This document shows positions 931 through 58,375 of a stretch of 64,000 bases of DNA, one piece after another. Both the position numbers and the translations under genes were made by a program. Position 1 is the stretch's first letter. Each line of letters starts with the position of its first letter. This stretch comes from Octopus vulgaris (lineage: Eukaryota), in contig OX597815.1 in NCBI GenBank assembly GCA_951406725.2, forward strand, positions 101,990,001 to 102,054,000, written 5' to 3'. The notes under the pieces are model-generated. The model was not told where the DNA came from. It was given only the letters and a program-made list of their open reading frames with translations, and searched no databases.

Positions 931-1286
<356 letters not shown>

Positions 1287-1411: not shown

Positions 1412-1929
1412 GAATGTTTCTATATTCATATGAATGCGCGCGTATGTTAGTCTATATATAATAAGTGTAGGTGGTATACGCGTGGGTATATATTTACAAA
1501 AAAGAAGTTTGAAAACGCCACTATATAAGATAAATTTTTAATTTCTTAGAAATTTTACGTTTCAGTTCTCTCTCTCTCTCTCTCTCTGTATATATATATA
1601 TATATATATACATAAAAACGCGCGCGCGCATTCATATGAATATAGAAACATTCATGTGTGTCTATACATACACACACATATATAGCATACATACATGTAT
1701 ATCTGCGTGATCATGCATACATGCATACATACATACATACATACATACATACATACATACATACATACATAACTTTCTCGTATTCATACATACCTGCATA
1801 CATTTATAATACACGAAAGCATACGGACTGATATAAATATAAAAAATTATAAATGATACGTAGATGTATGCAAAACAAGCAAACAGATAGACAGACGTGT
1901 GTATATATATATATATATATTAATACTTT

Positions 1930-2375
1930 ATCTAGTTCGGCTTAACAGCCCTTCTTGTCTTGTTATTCTCCTTGTCCTGTCTTTTACTGTTTATATTTTG
2001 TACTGTCGTTACTGTCCTGTTTTTGTTACCATTTTTACCCCTCCGCAAAAAGATCTCAAATTTTATTTAATTTGCTTTTTGCGGGAAGGAAAGTTTCTAT
2101 CGAAGATGCGTATCGCCTTCACTTTCGAAACGCAGAGTTAATGAAGCCATGGCGACTGAAGAAGGGGAATTTTCCTTGTGTTATTTGTCCTGTACTCTAT
2201 TTTTTCGTTGTTTAAGAAAAATGTCCAGTTCCTTGGTTTTGTGTTTATGTTTTAGTTTCTCATTGTGTTCGACGTTTTTTGGTGTCCTGTACCCATATAT
2301 GCGTGTATATATACATGTAGAGGTAGGTACGTACATATATGTATGTATATATGCATATGTTTTATTTATTAATTC

Positions 2376-26727: not shown

Positions 26728-27415
26728 GCACAAAGGACCCGCCGGTACGAGAAACGCCAACGTCTTTTGAACAAAACAAACAGTTCAACTCCAACCCCAA
26801 AAAGTTCTACCAAGAACTTGGCAAAAATAAAATAGAAATCACTGCAGCACTAACGGCAGAAGAAGTAGAAGAATTCTGGAGAGAAATATGGTCGGCGAAC
26901 GAACAACCAAAAGAAATATTAACCAAAATAGATATTAAAACAACAAACTCAGCATCTGAGCAACTTTGGACCCCATAACAACTAAAGAGGTCACCCAGGC
27001 ACTGCAAAGACTAAGCAACTGGAAGGCACCAGGGCATGAAAAGATCCCCAACTTCTAGTTGAAATATCTAACAGGAATGCACAAAAAGCTGGCTGAAAAC
27101 TTTAACAACATACTGACTGAGCCAGAGACAATGCTTGAATGGCTCACGAAGGGGAAAACCATCTTAATTCCCAAATCAAATGAGACAGCAAAACCATAAA
27201 ACTACAGACCTATAACCTGTCTCCCTACAATGTACAAAGCATTTACTGCAGTAATATCACAAAGATTGAACAAGCACCTGGACGAAAACAACCTGTTTCA
27301 GAAGAGCAGAAAGGATGCCGCAAATGCTCATATGGCTGTAAAGATCAATTAATGATCAATAAAGCCATAACTGAAGACAGCCACAGAAAGAAGAAAGGCC
27401 TCAGTATGGCCTGGA

Positions 27416-28705
27416 TTGATTACAAAACGGCGTTTGATAGGATCCCCACACATGGATCCTCAAACCTTAGCCATTAATAAAGTTGCACCAACAATTATAA
27501 AATACATAGGACACTCTATGAATAAATGGCAGACAGTGCTACAGCTCCAAACAAAAGAGGGACTTGTGAAAACCAAAGCCATCCCCATTAGAAGAGGAAT
27601 ATTCCAGGGAGACACGCTCTCTCCACTCCTTTTCTGCTTGGCACTGTCACCTCTATCGGATATGCTAAACAGAACTGGATGCGGATATAAATGTTACGGC
27701 AAAAAGATCAGCCACCTTTTATATATGGATGACCTAAAACTATACGCCACAAATGACAAACAGCTGGAAACATTACTAAAGACAGTTCATGGATTTACCA
27801 AAGAAATAGATATGAAATTTGGATTGGAGAAATGCGCCAAAGTAACCCTGAAAAGAGGCAAACTAGTTAAGAGTAGCAACATCACACTAGATAAAACCAA
27901 TGAAATAAGAGAATTAGACCAAAGCCAAACTTACAAATACTTAGGAATCCATGAACTAGATAAGACACAACACACACAAATGAAAGAGAAAATAAAAAAA
28001 GAATATTATAGACGAGTTAGATCAATACTGAAAACAGAGCTCAATGCTAAAAACAAGATAATAGGTATCAACACTTTAGCCGTCCCAGTTATAAGTTACA
28101 GCTACAATATCCTTAACTGGACACGAAATAGACTGACCAAAATAGATAGGAAAACAAGAAAAATAATGACAGGATCTAGGATGCATCACCCAAAATCTGA
28201 CATAGAAAGACTATATATACAACGTATAGATGGTGGTAGAGGCCTTATACAGCTGGAAAACTATTATAAAATAACCACCAGAGGACTGCAAAAATATCTA
28301 CTTCAGAATGAAGGAAAACTGATACAAATAGCGGCAAAACACGAGCAAAACAAAAAACTGTTCTCAGTATTTAAGGAAGCTGACAAATACAAACAAGAAA
28401 TCATACCACCTAACAAATATGAAGAAGAAGAAGAAGAAGAAGAAGAAGAAGAAGAAGAAGAAGAAGAAGAAGAAGAAGAAGAAGAAGAAGAAGAAGAAGA
28501 AGAAGAAGAAGAAGAAGAAGAAGAAGAAGAAGAAGAAGAAGAAGAAGAAGAAGAAGAAGAAGAAGAAGAAGAAGAAGAAGAAGAAGAAGAAGAAGAAGAA
28601 ACAACAAAAGCTATAAAACAAATGAAATCCAAACTAAAAATAGAACAGCAACGAACCATGATAAAACGATGCAAGAAAACGCCTTCATGGCAAATACTGG
28701 ACTAA
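27416..28705 (+). pseudogene. Largest open segment of the Dong/R4 reverse transcriptase
   Basis: 429-aa ORF with RT motifs; frameshifted at both ends. Confidence 0.9.
28421..28600 (+). repeat. (GAA)60, in frame as poly-Glu within the LINE ORF
   Basis: 180-bp uninterrupted tract. Confidence 0.95.
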
Positions 28706-29550
28706 ACTAAATGCAAAAGAAATAGACAAAGAAAAATCCCAGCAATGGTTGAGAAGCTCAGGACTCAAAGCAGAGACAGAAGGATTTTTAATTGCAGCAC
28801 AAGACCAAAGCCTCCCCACCAGAAATTACGAAAAACACGCAATGAAAAGAAATATAACAAGTAACTGCAGAATATGTGGAGATGGACAAGAAACAATAAA
28901 TCATATTATCTCTGGCTGCCCAGTCCTGGCTAAGAAGGAATATATTCACAGACATGACAGATTTGGGACCTATATACACTGGAAGCTATGCCAACATTAT
29001 GAAATAACAACAGAAAAAAGATGGTATAGGCACACACCAGAAAAAGTCACAGAAAACGAGAAAGCAACCATACTCTGGGATATGCCAATACACACAGATA
29101 GAGAAATTAATGCCAACAGACCAGATATAGTTGTCAGAGATCCTGAAGAAAAAAATGCTTTCTAATTGATGTATCAATACCGGCTGATGACAACGTGTCT
29201 CTAAAAGAAATGGAGAAACTCTCAAAATACAAAGATCTGGAAATAGAGGTAACCAGAATGTGGAATCTAAAAACAGAAACAATTCTTATCATAATAGGTG
29301 CATTAGGCATGATAAAAAAATATTCAGACAAATACATAACAAAAACACCAGGACTTACAAACACATATAACATACAGAAAAGTGCATTACTATGCACTGC
29401 ACACATCCTACGCAGAACACTTTCCATACAGTAACCATCAGAGCACCACAACAAATCACAGCACATACCCAAGGAACACAGAGCTGCGCTCGGTAGTGAA
29501 GTGAAAGCACGCTATAAAAAATATACTACTGAATAATAATAATAATAATA

Positions 29551-36543: not shown

Positions 36544-36749
36544 GATAAATCTCAGAGCGAGTTATAAACAGTAGCGGTAACACATCGTGACGCATATTTG
36601 CCATTTGAATATGGCTAACCCCTAAGGGTGGATGCTACTGTAGTTTGTAGCCCCAGGAAGATACCTCCTCCAGCTGGCTATAGACACACTATCTATGCCC
36701 TATCAGTATTTGTGAAGAGAAGTCATCCTTCCATCTTCAACTTATGATA

Positions 36750-36794
36750 CACACGGACTCGAGTTTCAAGGTGTTTACCTATCATCAGCGTGTG
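36750..36794 (-). ncRNA. Type I hammerhead ribozyme, identical inverted copy
   Basis: Exact reverse complement of 36861-36905. Confidence 0.85.
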
Positions 36795-36860
36795 ACAATC
36801 ATTGTTGTCGACAATCATAGTTGTGAGGGAAACTGAATTCTCGTCGACAACTATGATTTT

Positions 36861-36905
36861 CACACGCTGATGATAGGTAAACACCTTGAAACTCGAGTCC
36901 GTGTG
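36861..36905 (+). ncRNA. Type I hammerhead ribozyme
   Basis: CACACG-CUGAUGA-U-AGGU aaac ACCU-U-GAAA-CUCGAG-UC^-CGUGUG; all stems perfect, GUC cleavage triplet. Confidence 0.85.
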
Positions 36906-37067
36906 TATCATAAGTTGAAGACGGGAAGGATAACTTTCCTTCACAAATCCTGATCCGGCACATATAGTGTGTCTATAGCCAGCTGGAGGAGGTATCTTCC
37001 TGGGGCTACAAACTACAGTAGCATCCACCCTTAGGGCTAGCCATATTCAAATGGCAAATATGCGTCA

Positions 37068-52036: not shown

Positions 52037-52385
52037 CGAGCAAAACGCTCCCCGTCCAATGGACGGTGCTGAGTTGTCAAACATTTACACCAAATTTTCT
52101 CAAAACAACTTGTCCGACCGTCCCATAAGGCTCCCCTTTGAGAAACACTGATTTAACCTAAATTTGAGACACCAGCAAAAGATGGATTTCGACTGATGTA
52201 GTTGCGCGTACAAATGCACGTTCACACGGCTTTATCGATCGCATTCTCGCCTGGAATCGATTTTTGTAATTTTTTCAATACCGTCAGTATCAACATATTA
52301 AATTTGAGCGCAGTCGGATGGAGGATGCCCGAGATCTTAGAAGACACACACACAGAGACCGACAGAACGGATTTTATATAATAGA
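52037..52385 (-). mobile_element. Non-autonomous Helitron-like element, one per tandem unit
   Basis: Minus strand starts TCTATTATATAAAA and ends with hairpin CCGTCCATTGGACGG then CTCG (CTAG variant). Confidence 0.65.
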
Positions 52386-52405
52386 TATATATATGAATAT
52401 ATATA

Positions 52406-52475
<70 letters not shown>

Positions 52476-52513
52476 TATATGAATATATATATATATGAAT
52501 ATATATATATGTT

Positions 52514-52558
<45 letters not shown>

Positions 52559-52568
52559 TGTATGTATG

Positions 52569-52604
<36 letters not shown>

Positions 52605-53110
52605 CATATGCACTCATATATACACACACATATTTATATATTATTTAGTATTGTTATTTAACTGAACACCGCGCATCCATTTTCAAGTAAGTTTATCTTC
52701 ACCTTTTTCATGTCGCTCTACTCTACACTGTTTTCTTCCTCCATCCATCTCTAATTCCCTTTTTCTTGTCCTCCTCTTTCACTGTTTTCTATCTGTGTGT
52801 CTCTCTCTCCCTTTTTCTCTTTTTCTCTCTCTCTCTCTCGTTGCTCGTCCATCTTTCTTTTCCTCACGTGACCATCTTTCTTTTCTTTCATGGATTTTTA
52901 AAGAACTGGACGTTATTTTTCTCTCTCTTCTATCGTTTCTCTTTTCAAAGAAAATATTTATTTCCCCTTCGTTATGTTCTAAAGACCCTCCATGTTTGTT
53001 TTCGTTCGGTTACGTTGTATGTCTCCACTGTCCTGTTTTTGTTCCCAACTTTGACCCTCCAAAAATCCTAAATTATATTTTAGAATTTATGGGAGCAACT
53101 GTTTTGAAGA

Positions 53111-53178
53111 CTCATATTGTCGTTAAATGCTCGAAATGAGGTGTAGATAGACAGCCGACAACTGATAAAGGGTAGTTT
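53111..53178 (+). ncRNA. Non-circularly permuted hammerhead (subfamily B, G8A core); copies at 54494-54561 and 55928-55995
   Basis: CUCA-UA^-UUGUCG-uu-AAAUGCUC-GAAA-UGAG-(15 nt)-CGACAA-CUGAUAA-A-GGGUA(g)UUU. Confidence 0.65.
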
Positions 53179-53366
53179 CTCTGTGTTTACTTGTACTATA
53201 ATAACGGTCAATCAGACAGTAATTTTCCATTGTATAACGGTCATTTTTCATAGCATTTTTCCGATGGCTGGATAACTGAAGAGATGGCGGCGTGGATTTC
53301 CACCTCGGCATCCGAAACTCGGAGTTTTATCATGGCTACCGAATAATTGTCACATATTACATTTTC

Positions 53367-53424
<58 letters not shown>

Positions 53425-53792
53425 GAGCAAAACGCTCCCCGTCCAATGGACGGTGCTGAGTTGTCAAACATTTACACCAAATTTTCTCAAAACAACTTGT
53501 CCGACCGTCCCATAAGGCTCCCCTTTGAGAAACACTGATTTAACCTAAATTTGAGACACCAGCAAAAGATGGATTTCGACTGATGTAGTTGCGCGTACAA
53601 ATGCACGTTCACACGGCTTTATCGATCGCATTCTCGCCTGGAATCGATTTTTGTAATTTTTTCAATACCGTCAGTATCAACATATTAAATTTGAGCGCAG
53701 TCGGATGGAGGATGCCCGAGATCTTAGAAGACACACACACAGAGACCGACAGAACGGATTTTATATAATAGATATATATATGAATATATATA

Positions 53793-53860
<68 letters not shown>

Positions 53861-53896
53861 TATGAATATATATATATATGAATATATATATATGTT

Positions 53897-53941
<45 letters not shown>

Positions 53942-53951
53942 TGTATGTATG

Positions 53952-53983
<32 letters not shown>

Positions 53984-54749
53984 CCCATATGCACTCATAT
54001 ATACACACACATATTTATATATTATTTAGTATTGTTATTTAACTGAACACCGCGCATCCATTTTCAAGTAAGTTTATCTTCACCTTTTTCATGTCGCTCT
54101 ACTCTACACTGTTTTCTTCCTCCATCCATCTCTAATTCCCTTTTTCTTGTCCTCCTCTTTCACTGTTTTCTATCTGTGTGTCTCTCTCTCCCCTTTTTCT
54201 CTTTTTCTCTCTCTCTCTCTCGTTGCTCGTCCATCTTTCTTTTCCTCACGTGACCATCTTTCTTTTCTTTCATGGATTTTTAAAGAACTGGACGTTATTT
54301 TTTCTCTCTCTTCTATCGTTTCTCTTTTCAAAGAAAATATTTATTTCCCCTTCGTTATGTTCTAAAGACCCTCCATGTTTGTTTTCGTTCGGTTACGTTG
54401 TATGTCTCCACTGTCCTGTTTTTGTTCCCAACTTTGACCCTCCAAAAATCCTAAATTATATTTTAGAATTTATGGGAGCAACTGTTTTGAAGACTCATAT
54501 TGTCGTTAAATGCTCGAAATGAGGTGTAGATAGACAGCCGACAACTGATAAAGGGTAGTTTCTCTGTGTTTACTTGTACTATAATAACGGTCAATCAGAC
54601 AGTAATTTTCCATTGTATAACGGTCATTTTTCATAGCATTTTTCCGATGGCTGGATAACTGAAGAGATGGCGGCGTGGATTTCCACCTCGGCATCCGAAA
54701 CTCGGAGTTTTATCATGGCTACCGAATAATTGTCACATATTACATTTTC

Positions 54750-54807
<58 letters not shown>

Positions 54808-55208
54808 GAGCAAAACGCTCCCCGTCCAATGGACGGTGCTGAGTTGTCAAACATTTACACCAAATTTTCTCAAAACAACTTGTCCGACCGTCCCATAAGG
54901 CTCCCCTTTGAGAAACACTGATTTAACCTAAATTTGAGACACCAGCAAAAGATGGATTTCGACTGATGTAGTTGCGCGTACAAATGCACGTTCACACGGC
55001 TTTATCGATCGAATTCTCGCCTGGAATCGATTTTTGTAATTTTTTCAAACCTCATACAGGCCTGATACCGTCAGTATCAACATATTAAATTTGAGCGCAA
55101 TCGGATGGAGGATGCCCGAGATCTTAGAAGACACACACACAGAGACCGACAGAACGGATTTTATATAATAGATATATATATGAATATATATATATATGAA
55201 TATATATA

Positions 55209-55290
<82 letters not shown>

Positions 55291-55332
55291 TAGATATATG
55301 AATATATATATATATGAATATATATATATGTT

Positions 55333-55381
<49 letters not shown>

Positions 55382-56256
55382 TGTATGTATGTATGTATAT
55401 ATATATATATATATATACCCATATGCACTCATATATACACACACATATTTATATATTATTTAGTATTGTTATTTAACTGAACACCGCGCATCCATTTTCA
55501 AGTAAGTTTATCTTCACCTTTTTCATGTCGCTCTACTCTACACTGTTTTCTTCCTCCATCCATCTCTAATTCCCGTTTTCTTCTCCTCCTCTTTCACTGT
55601 TTTCTATCTGTGTGTCTCTCTCTCCCCTTTTTCTCTTTTTCTCTCTCTCTCTCTCGTTGCTCGTCCATCTTTCTTTTCCTCACGTGACCATCTTTCTTTT
55701 CTTTCATGGATTTTTAAAGAACTGGACGTTATTTTTTCTCTCTCTTCTATCGTTTCTCTTTTCAAAGAAAATATTTATTTCCCCTTCGTTATGTTCTAAA
55801 GACCCTCCATGTTTGTTTTCGTTCGGTTACGTTGTATGTCTCCACTGTCCTGTTTTTGTTCCCAACTTTGACCCTCCAAAAATCCTAAATTATATTTTAG
55901 AATTTATGGGAGCAACTGTTTTGAAGACTCATATTGTCGTTAAATGCTCGAAATGAGGTGTAGATAGACAGCCGACAACTGATAAAGGGTAGTTTCTCTG
56001 TGTTTACTTGTACTATAATAACGGTCAATCAGACAGTAATTTCTCTTTGTATAACGGTCATTTTTCATAGCATTTTCCCGATGGCCGGATAACTGAAGAG
56101 ATGGCGGCGTGGATTTCCACCTCGGCATCTGAAACACGGAGTTTTATCATAATTGTCACATATTACATTTACAGATAAATTCCTATATTTACATAAAATC
56201 GAGGTCTCTTTCTTTCATTTGTTGTCTTACCATTTTTATCAATATATATATATATA

Positions 56257-57862
56257 CAGTTGCGGCCAAAATGTTCAGAACGGCATTGTTTTCGTCAGAA
56301 AAGTAGATATAATTTTTTATCAAAGTTGTTTTATGTTTTATAATTTTCACAGACAATAAATACGATATTATTTGTTATTGCCTGAGATTTTGGTGTAATT
56401 TGAGAGGATTAATACAAAAGTTATGGATGATTTAGTGATTTACTGCAAAACCCATGGCGGCCAAAACGATCAGAACGGTTGCTTTTACTCCATGTTTTAG
56501 TATATTTAATCGGCGAACTCTAATGTTTTGAATTTGTTTACGTGACGGTTCGTTTACTAAACATTAGTGTACTTTGTTAATATAATGCCACTTACTCTGT
56601 TACCAATTCGTCAGCAGATTATTAAGCTTCGAAGGAAGGATAATTTAAGTATTGGATCTATTGCAAAGATTGTTAACAAGTCAAAAAGTGTTGTACACGG
56701 TATTCTTAAGGTCTACGATGATTGTGGTTCGTGTTAAGCAAGAAAGTTTACAGGTAGGCCAAGAAAAACGACCTAGAGAGAAGATCGTGCTATGGTAAAG
56801 TTGGTTAAAAAGGACAGATTTAAAACTGCTGCTGCTGTTTCTCGGAAAATGAGCATTGTATTGAAGAAAACTTTATCTCGAAAAACTGTGTCTCGTTGTT
56901 TAGTTGAACATGACCTACAAGCAAGAGCACCTGCAGTGAGACCACTGATCAGCTCCAAGAATAAAAAGTGTCGTCTTACCTTTGCAACCGAACATGTGTT
57001 GTGGTCTCAAGAAAAATGGCAAACGGTGCATTTCAGTGATGAATCTAAGTTGATGCTATTTGGCTCAGATGAGAAAAGGTACGTTCGTAGAAAAGTAGGT
57101 GAAAAATTGTTGCCTAAATGCCTTAAGACTAGTGTTAAATTCGGTGGAGGAAGTGTCATGGTTTGGGGAATGATATCTGGAGATGGTGTGGGCCCTTTGG
57201 TGCGATTACATGGAAAGTTAAATGCAGGAGTTTATAAACAACTTGTAAAAGATCATGTCTTGCCTGTGCTGAGAAATTCAACTTAGCGACCACCCATATT
57301 CATGCAGGACAATGCCACATGTCACAAGGCTAAGGTGGTCATGAACTTCCTCAAGGCTGAAAAGGTTATTGTTATGGATTGGCCAGCTCAAAGCCCAGAT
57401 CTCAATCCTATTGAAAATGTTTGGAATATTCTAGGAGAACGTTCGAAAGCCAGAAATCCTAAAACAACTGAGCAATTATGGAATGCCTTTCAGGAAGAAT
57501 GGAATAAGATCACCCAGCAAGAAATTGAAAATTTAATTTCCTCATGCAGTCGAAGATGTCAGAGTGTGATTGAAGCTAAAGGGCTTCACACTAAATATTA
57601 AATAATTCCAGCATTCTCTGTCATTTTTGATTTTTTTCATTTTTTCATCCGTTCTGATCATTTTGGCCGCCATGGGTTTTGCAGTAAATCACTAAATCAT
57701 CCATAACTTTAGTATTATCCTCTCAAATTACACCAAAATATCAGACAATAACAATTAATATTGTATTTATTGTGAAAATTATAGAATATAAAACAACTTT
57801 GATAAAAACTTGTACCTACTTTTCTGACGAAAACAATGCCGTTCTGAACATTTTGGCCGCAA

Positions 57863-57865
<3 letters not shown>
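56257..57865 (+). mobile_element. Full-length Tc1 transposon (DD34E) with ~220-bp IR/DR-type ends, inserted in (TA)n
   Basis: TA-CAGTTGCGGCCAAAATGTTCAGAACG ... CGTTCTGAACATTTTGGCCGCAACTG-TA; inner repeats at ~56457-56478 and ~57649-57671. Confidence 0.95.
56585..57601 (+). pseudogene. Tc1 transposase, single frame with three premature stops
   Basis: GRPRK, FSDESK, QDNA and SPDLNPIE with 34 residues between the second D and E; stops near 56735, 56774 and at 57284. Confidence 0.93.
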
Positions 57866-57899
<34 letters not shown>

Positions 57900-57903
<4 letters not shown>

Positions 57904-58375
57904 TAAATGGGTAAAGGACGTCACCAACTGCGTAAACAACACGAAAAACGTAGACAAACGAGTTAAATACGTAAACAAATAGAGAAAAATGGAAAACAGA
58001 ACACGTGAACACAGAGGAACTACCCTTCATCAGTTGTCAGCTGTCTATCTGCTTCTCATTTCGAGCATTCAACGACAATATGAATCTTCAAAGACAGTTA
58101 CTCCCATGAATACTAAAATAGAATTTAGGATTTTTGGAGGGTCAAAGTTGGGAACAAAAACATTAGGAAAAGAGAGTTGGACGATGGTCACGTGTGAAAA
58201 GCGAGATAGGGTAGAAAGTGAGAGAGAGAGAGAAAGCACTGAAAGAGGGTGAGGAGGAAAAGGGAATTAGAGAAGGATGGAGGAAGAAAACAGTAAAAAG
58301 TAGAGTCGCATCGAAAAGGTGAAGATAAACTTACTTGAAAATGGATGCGTGGCGTTCAGCTAAATAATAATAAAC
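57900..58375 (-). mobile_element. Diverged copy of the subfamily B rearranged-hammerhead element, with its 3' tail
   Basis: Reverse complement aligns with 52640-53195. Confidence 0.8.
58017..58084 (-). ncRNA. Non-circularly permuted hammerhead ribozyme candidate, intact core (best copy)
   Basis: Minus: UUCA-UA^-UUGUCG-uu-GAAUGCUC-GAAA-UGAG-(15 nt)-UGACAA-CUGAUGA-A-GGGUA(g)UUC. Confidence 0.75.

Follow-up and report, generated by a model that had tools for sequence, protein, structure and literature searches.

A predicted type-SGC hammerhead ribozyme in non-autonomous Penelope-like repeats of the octopus genome

On the minus strand of a 64,000-nt stretch of the Octopus vulgaris genome (contig OX597815.1, positions 101,990,001 to 102,054,000; hereafter the window), the core bases of the hammerhead ribozyme and its stems I, II and III can be read at 58084-58022 in the block order S-G-C. 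The feature is real, and very probably a type-SGC hammerhead ribozyme, with predicted cleavage, which non-autonomous Penelope-like retroelements carry some 190 nt before their 3' end. What the data show is its sequence and copy number, its covariation, the build of the host element and a step in the truncation points; catalysis, folding order and biological role are inferred. The A-C-B strand order recognised in a sequence-only reading of this DNA, which had mentioned earlier reports of non-circular permutations, is indeed that of the published type SGC (PMC10085705, in the sections considered here), so the topology itself is already known. What does appear to be new is its host and scale, together with the peripheral fold and the connection to Naiad elements.

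Re-reading the minus strand gave the same letters in the same strand order as that earlier reading, and confirmed the pairing of the three stems around a full core. Block S (58084-58073) comprises the 5' strand of stem III (UUCAU, 58084-58080), A17 at 58079 and the 3' strand of stem I (UUGUCG, 58078-58073). Here U16.1-A17 place the predicted cut after A58079, at 58079/58078, the N-U-H triplet being AUA. In block G (58067-58055), a strand available to stem II or to a further helix, X, precedes GAAA (58062-58059), the eight bases directly before which (58070-58063) read GAAUGCUC; the 3' strand of stem III, AUGAG, occupies 58059-58055. A 15-nt linker (58054-58040) then supplies one strand of an internal loop (AAGCA in the window copy, GAGUA in most copies) and the 3' strand of another helix, IIIb, which ends one base before stem I. 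Block C (58039-58022) consists of the 5' strand of stem I (UGACAA, 58039-58034), CUGAUGA (58033-58027), an extra A at 58026 and the 5' strand of stem II, the bases after the extra A (58025-58017) being GGGUAGUUC. Stem III thus has 5 bp (UUCAU/AUGAG), stem I 6 bp (UUGUCG/UGACAA) and stem II 4-5 bp (GGGU/GCUC), and all of CUGAnGA, GAAA, U-H, G10.1-C11.1 and A15.1-U16.1 are present. The 8-bp bulged stem II first proposed does exist in the window copy, but across subfamilies only its first 2-4 pairs recur. Two upstream strands complete the picture: the 5' strand of IIIb (58097-58092, partner 58046-58041) and strand U of helix X (58103-58099), complementary to the strand before GAAA. The sequence-only reading had missed both helices, as well as a second subfamily in the window and the Naiad link.

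A descriptor covering all six block orders found no SGC match in 30 shuffles of the window and nothing as strong as the 6/4/5 bp seen here, the yield being two weaker matches in other orders; a pattern with block G before block C had two matches in the window, against none in 100 shuffles. Rfam gave no hammerhead match at the gathering score and only chance matches to snoRNAs and lncRNAs (E 2.6-9.5). Nor does the nested minimum-free-energy fold (z +1.15) contain the motif, which is what pseudoknotting would lead one to expect. When full motifs are folded without crossing pairs, structures other than SGC are favoured.

The motif belongs to a subfamily 1 copy of a repeat (58373-57895, minus strand) that keeps both ends, has an internal deletion and is flanked by microsatellite. 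Its 3' terminus (57919-57895), common to the whole superfamily, runs into (TA)n and has 5,976 exact matches genome-wide; a 29-mer from the repeat has 205 exact copies, and a first look at the 2.8-Gb genome gave 4,060 candidates, of which 40 were scored. The full unit is ~750-870 nt long (~750 nt in subfamily 1), has no recognisable coding frame and places the motif ~190 nt from its 3' end. Its 5' ends vary, i.e. are truncated, while the 3' end is fixed, and among 124 loci 109 have one strict motif within about 3 kb, 8 are tandem and 7 inverted, with a tandem unit spacing of 836-876 nt (three loci). The fixed 3' end, 5' truncation, tandem and inverted copies and microsatellite target are those of Penelope-like insertions, as described in the parts of PMC8557442 used here, and all are present. 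Judged by sequence, then, the host is a non-autonomous, non-coding Penelope-like repeat superfamily that inserts at (TA)n. The first description of it as a dispersed, probably Penelope-derived repeat is borne out as to dispersal and Penelope-like hallmarks, but neither an ORF (none was seen downstream of the 5' end in 30 loci) nor a partner element came to light. No autonomous element with the same termini was found among the Penelope-like fragments adjoining copies (L004, L064, L088 and L163), which lie there because of the common (TA)n target. A young element with reverse transcriptase (RT) and GIY-YIG domains was considered as the mobiliser and rejected, its 3' end being different. In its own right, this element (L248, 1521-3779, and relatives) has a 753-aa RT plus GIY-YIG frame, the GIY-YIG score lying under the Pfam cut-off; over the query, 150 scored copies show 97-100% identity. 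In its 3' UTR, GAAA comes after a hairpin but a standard CUGAnGA is missing, so that this is possibly a variant core.

The window contains further copies of the superfamily. A 5'-truncated copy of subfamily 2 (1920-2302, plus strand) has its own SGC motif at 2107-2167; this subfamily is young, its best copies being 95-98% alike, and its stems differ from those of subfamily 1 by compensatory changes. A 3'-truncated subfamily 1 copy (52649-53197, plus strand) lies inside a local tandem duplication, with second and third duplicates at 54030-54580 and 55464-56014 (both plus strand); its core reads CUGAUAA and, G8 being lost, it is probably dead. The duplication itself (52300-56200) is a 1.38-1.43 kb segment present three times, each with such a 3'-truncated element that has lost G8. 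Between it and our motif lies a Tc1/mariner element (56250-57870), recognisable by its terminal inverted repeats and what is left of a transposase (PF01498); the (TA)n at the right end of this element is where the SGC copy is located.

The sequence-only reading had proposed searching the genome in A-C-B order and examining covariation across genomic copies, and both were done here. The G-before-C pattern has 11,810 matches genome-wide versus 420 for a reversed control. Most of the 100 matches listed look by eye like family members, and 40 loci chosen for diversity from these 100 include at least ten subfamilies. A metagenome scan with the family pattern gave no matches. The spacing from GAAA to CUGA is 27-30 nt in 82 of 83 matches, although the pattern allowed ~20-50, and that from the cut to GAAA is 12-16 nt in all 83. 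By descriptor the family loci are SGC (73 matches), the seven CGS matches being other repeats, and no family locus conforms to a circularly permuted type (CGS, GSC or SCG) within one copy. Among copies chosen for their overall similarity, 23/30 of subfamily 2 and 14 of the 25 parsed ones of subfamily 1 (from 29 loci) have both core and stems intact. The predicted cut triplets of other subfamilies are GUC, GUA, GUU and AUC.

Covariation was assessed in a plain MAFFT alignment of 24 hand-picked, related rows spanning the subfamilies, with the structure read from row 1 (three rows have a stray A owing to the pattern that found them). At a mean column identity of 62%, the core bases are invariant in 24/24 rows, an invariance partly built in, since core patterns had served to find most of the rows. 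Of the 332 cells in stems I-III, 96.7% are paired, a share reached by none of 500 shuffles, and controls with slid partners attain at most 59.5%. Changes on both sides affect 9 of the 14 pairs (stem I 4/5, stem III 4/5, stem II 1/4), stem II being the weakest.

Stem III is followed by an internal loop, with 4-6 nt on each strand, which is kept at one place in every subfamily inspected; beyond it the linker pairs with upstream sequence to form helix IIIb, of up to 9-10 bp. Its strands vary by subfamily (CUGUCU/AGACAG, CUAGUUCGAC/GUUGAAUUAG, CUAGCAUGAC/GUCUGCUAG); in the MAFFT register, where subfamily 1 rows are one column out, 76.5% of its cells pair and 6/10 pairs have two-sided changes. Its 3' strand meets stem I with 0-4 unpaired bases between them. 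A kink-turn reading of the loop strands GAAGA/GAGUA in the window's superfamily was abandoned, since subfamily 3 has GAAGU and pairs better in another register. Several subfamilies keep GAA/AGUA, which we take to be a straight motif of the loop-E type.

In helix X, the five bases just upstream of IIIb pair with the strand before GAAA, in the versions GAGCA/UGCUC and GAAGG/CCUUC, with a third version, read by eye, in the Naiad form. Pairing is 95.8% and three of the five pairs show two-sided change; these changes come from about five related rows and so represent one or two events. The pair-count measure is not significant (193/500 shuffles), and per-sequence shuffles, whose search window missed the Naiad strand, are mostly not significant either. 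With mostly Watson-Crick pairs, helix X exceeds in strength stem II, which is weak and G-U rich (duplex energies -5.9 to +1.7 kcal/mol), and the two compete for the same bases. Helix X might lengthen a 2-bp stem II and so close, together with stem I and IIIb, a second three-way junction; alternatively, it would act as a brake that forms ahead of the transcription of block C. In nested folds of the nascent RNA helix X forms early, and in four of six examples the fold is the local III-IIIb hairpin. In the SGC class the flanks of stems I and II are joined by a helix; here the stem I flank is taken by IIIb, and candidate substitutes are helix X and a purine/pyrimidine helix.

Naiads are described, in the sections of PMC8557442 considered here, as having no canonical hammerheads; eight "half cores" are given, one of them from octopus, and in these the other half lies at a distance of 35-50 nt, to one side or the other. 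By eye, the 3' ends of two octopus Naiad consensus sequences read S-G-C, and a motif derived from the published octopus Naiad sequences, a second SGC form, has 860 matches in the genome. At least eight Naiad-type genomic copies pass the descriptor with stems of 6, 2 and 5 bp, and in 8 of 12 loci the Naiad-type 3' region follows Naiad-like RT remnants. This motif shares with the window's superfamily the spacings (13 nt from cut to GAAA, 27 nt from GAAA to CUGA) and an extended stem III; according to the same parts of PMC8557442, Naiads also have (TA)n targets and tandem plus inverted structures. The Naiad form differs, however, in its 3' terminus, its 2-bp stem II and its weak overall similarity (best profile E 0.015). 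The superfamily itself is not Naiad: it has no ORF, a different terminus and was never seen joined to a Naiad ORF. The internal loop of the Naiad form resembles, by eye, the box C/D kink-turn consensus, and for this form alone the kink-turn reading is retained as a lead. No clean SGC is visible by eye in the 3' region of the squid Naiad (Naiad_Esco). In several other Naiad 3' regions (PMC8557442 supplement, parts 17-19), GAAAC stands some 40-50 nt before CCCCUGACGA, and by eye these are candidate permuted hammerheads. On the minus strand of L259, near 3000, there is a divergent member, again with G before C, whose core is CUGAGGA followed by an extra U (profile E 2e-5); it may stand between the window's superfamily and the Naiad form. 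The SGC motif may supply the ribozyme that had seemed to be missing from Naiad elements. A wider proposal, to which we lean rather less than evenly, is that SGC is the normal ribozyme of Naiads and of a large non-autonomous cephalopod superfamily: each published half core would belong to a full SGC ribozyme, stem I, stem II plus X and III-IIIb would form a hitherto undescribed, cage-like fold with a second three-way junction, closure would be by a hinge within the monomer or by a swap of strands between copies, and the template RNA would be cut in vivo.

Cutting of templates at the scissile bond should leave copies that end at it. With each locus counted once, on the reverse strand and in CCUUC-type subfamilies only, (TA)n-joined 5' ends number 247 (control 9) at the 10 positions just 3' of the predicted cut and 71 (control 0) at ~31 positions upstream; this genome-wide count covers the cut-proximal 10 positions and the upstream side. 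The second pattern includes an additional filter, which 35/39 full copies satisfy, and the per-base ratio is accordingly ~9. A TA/TAT microhomology just before CCUUC inflates the count 3' of the cut. Some copies, such as L261, L262 and L197, start at the predicted cut itself. At 27 distinct end-anchored loci, two 5' ends lie at -2..+16, seven at +17..+45 and eight further 3', with two at -42..-3 and eight beyond. The pattern is thus a step, and not a spike, at the predicted cut, and we regard this step in truncation points as a suggestive, indirect sign of cleavage. Three RNA runs from another species gave a depth of at most 7 on the subfamily 2 core, at which coverage no joints and no end pile-ups were seen; one contig set was also compared with a subfamily 2 copy.

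How might such an element work? The transcript would first fold the S-G hairpin, made of stem III, the purine-rich internal loop and helix IIIb; block C would next dock onto the hairpin loop, which would create the standard core along with stems I and II, and cutting after N-U-H would follow. IIIb, running straight into stem I, would take the place of the usual clamp between stems I and II. The cut could trim tandem or read-through transcripts and define the 5' end of the templates that a Penelope-type RT copies into (TA)n. The SGC topology does cleave in vitro (PMC10085705, sections considered here). For the Anolis element, the portions of PMC11167929 used here describe a hammerhead whose cleavage is protein-assisted and which is dispensable for insertion in vitro, and this limits the functional claims that can be made for the octopus repeats.

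Since stem III, the loop and IIIb amount to ~20 stacked pairs ending at the tip of stem I, either a monomer has to bend sharply within the internal loop or two copies have to exchange C blocks. Within the ribozyme reading, then, as an alternative to the loop-bent monomer, the core could be formed between two copies, each of the two RNAs or tandem units keeping its own S-G hairpin, with III and IIIb as one straight helix, and lending its block C to the other; the SGC order would then be a switch that permits cutting in multimers only. We put the chance of this domain-swapped arrangement not far short of even. Geometry speaks for it, as IIIb abuts stem I with 0-4 unpaired bases and a monomer would have to fold the stacked pairs back; so does the GAA/AGUA of several subfamilies, read as a straight motif of the loop-E type. 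Tandem units spaced by 836-876 nt exist at three loci, and metazoan Penelope-type hammerheads have been proposed to act as dimers (PMC4209133, in the parts drawn on). On the other hand, the internal loop is kept and that of the Naiad form looks, by eye, kink-turn-like, which suggests a hinge; 109 of 124 loci have a single copy within about 3 kb; and the same sections of PMC10085705 treat as single molecules some SGC ribozymes whose G-to-C link has zero length.

It seems unlikely that what is conserved is an RNA structure, or a ribozyme blocked by helix X, which hardly cleaves itself, if at all, and serves instead in the binding of RT or at the ends of templates. The strength of the mostly Watson-Crick helix X relative to stem II, the mere 2 bp of stem II in the Naiad form and the need of the Anolis hammerhead for a protein (PMC11167929, as used above) would fit this, but the catalytic bases and N-U-H were kept while the stems turned over between subfamilies, and 5' ends fall off upstream of the scissile bond. 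We consider it very unlikely that S and C of one tandem unit meet the G of the next in a long-range canonical (type III) fold with a long loop, the local SGC never forming. Tandem units do exist and the stems cannot tell which copy gives a strand; against this, the local III-IIIb hairpin, the predicted nascent fold in four of six cases, would hold G to the S of the same copy, solitary copies are in the majority, and the S-to-G distance is 12-16 nt in 83/83 matches, like the short I-II link of published SGC ribozymes. Finally, a chance arrangement in one passively amplified repeat, conceivable in so far as repeat copies are non-independent and short stems easily arise, can practically be dismissed, being contradicted already by the covariation, with compensatory changes between at least ten subfamilies, and by the Naiad form, which has the same block order although its flanks show hardly any similarity (best E 0.015).

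In the sections of PMC10085705 considered here, Eckert et al. (2023) describe type-SGC motifs (HRIMA-1, SGC variant) that have, as here, the S-G-C order, a full core, crossing stems, a short link between stems I and II and an optional extra base after CUGAnGA. Those came from metatranscriptomes, as proposed virus-like circular RNAs, whereas here there are thousands of copies in an animal genome. The extra base is A in the window superfamily but U in the published SGC and in the Naiad form, and the published clamp, in which a helix links the stem I flank to the stem II flank, contrasts with the IIIb-extended stem III plus helix X found here. The same sections mention a known-organism genome as source for a single GCS candidate and for no SGC, and the word "octopus" does not occur in the part of the supplement searched. 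As quoted there, the SGC descriptors demand CUGAUGAG or CUGAUGAUG, so that the CUGAnGA-A-G cores reported here could not be matched. No report of SGC ribozymes in animal genomes was found among open-licence papers and preprints. The Penelope-like hammerheads of Cervera and De la Peña (2014; PMC4209133, in part) likewise lie near the end of a repeated element, mostly in solitary truncated copies, with inverted pairs, often an unpaired base before stem II and possible action as dimers; they are, however, minimal type I (CGS) motifs with little or no helix III, unlike the long stem III and non-circular order here. Metazoan retrozymes, as presented in the parts of PMC7229834 used, are also non-autonomous, non-coding and hammerhead-bearing, with tandem arrangement possible, but their hammerheads are classical type I, as against the SGC order here.

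If our reading is correct, non-circular RNA permutations would no longer be a curiosity of environmental RNA, since an animal genome would hold one in high copy number and in a known genetic context, and there is a testable reason why Naiads seem to be without hammerheads. One-line changes of descriptor (SGC order, extra A or U, 2-bp stem II) could be applied to all Penelope-like consensus sequences, and the many natural variants lend themselves to structural work on how a pseudoknotted hammerhead closes. The truncation step would be, suggestively, a rare genomic trace of a role for the hammerhead in Penelope-like elements.

Other repeats of the same genome also carry hammerhead-like sequences. 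At 36740-36910 of the window there is an inverted pair of minimal type I motifs, one per strand, each with CUGAUGA, an extra U and a palindromic stem III, at the end of another Penelope-like element. The end of another (TA)n-inserting repeat (1040-1247, minus strand) has, by eye, a degenerate type I hammerhead-like motif whose core starts CCGACGA. At other loci (L151, L154, L158, L161-L171, L175, L178 and L180) a different abundant repeat is inserted in (AAT)n and has what by eye is a conventional type I hammerhead, with CUGAUGA, an extra A, a hairpin and GAAAC. RT remnants of a non-LTR retrotransposon, with a 444-aa frame, occupy 27370-29160 of the window.
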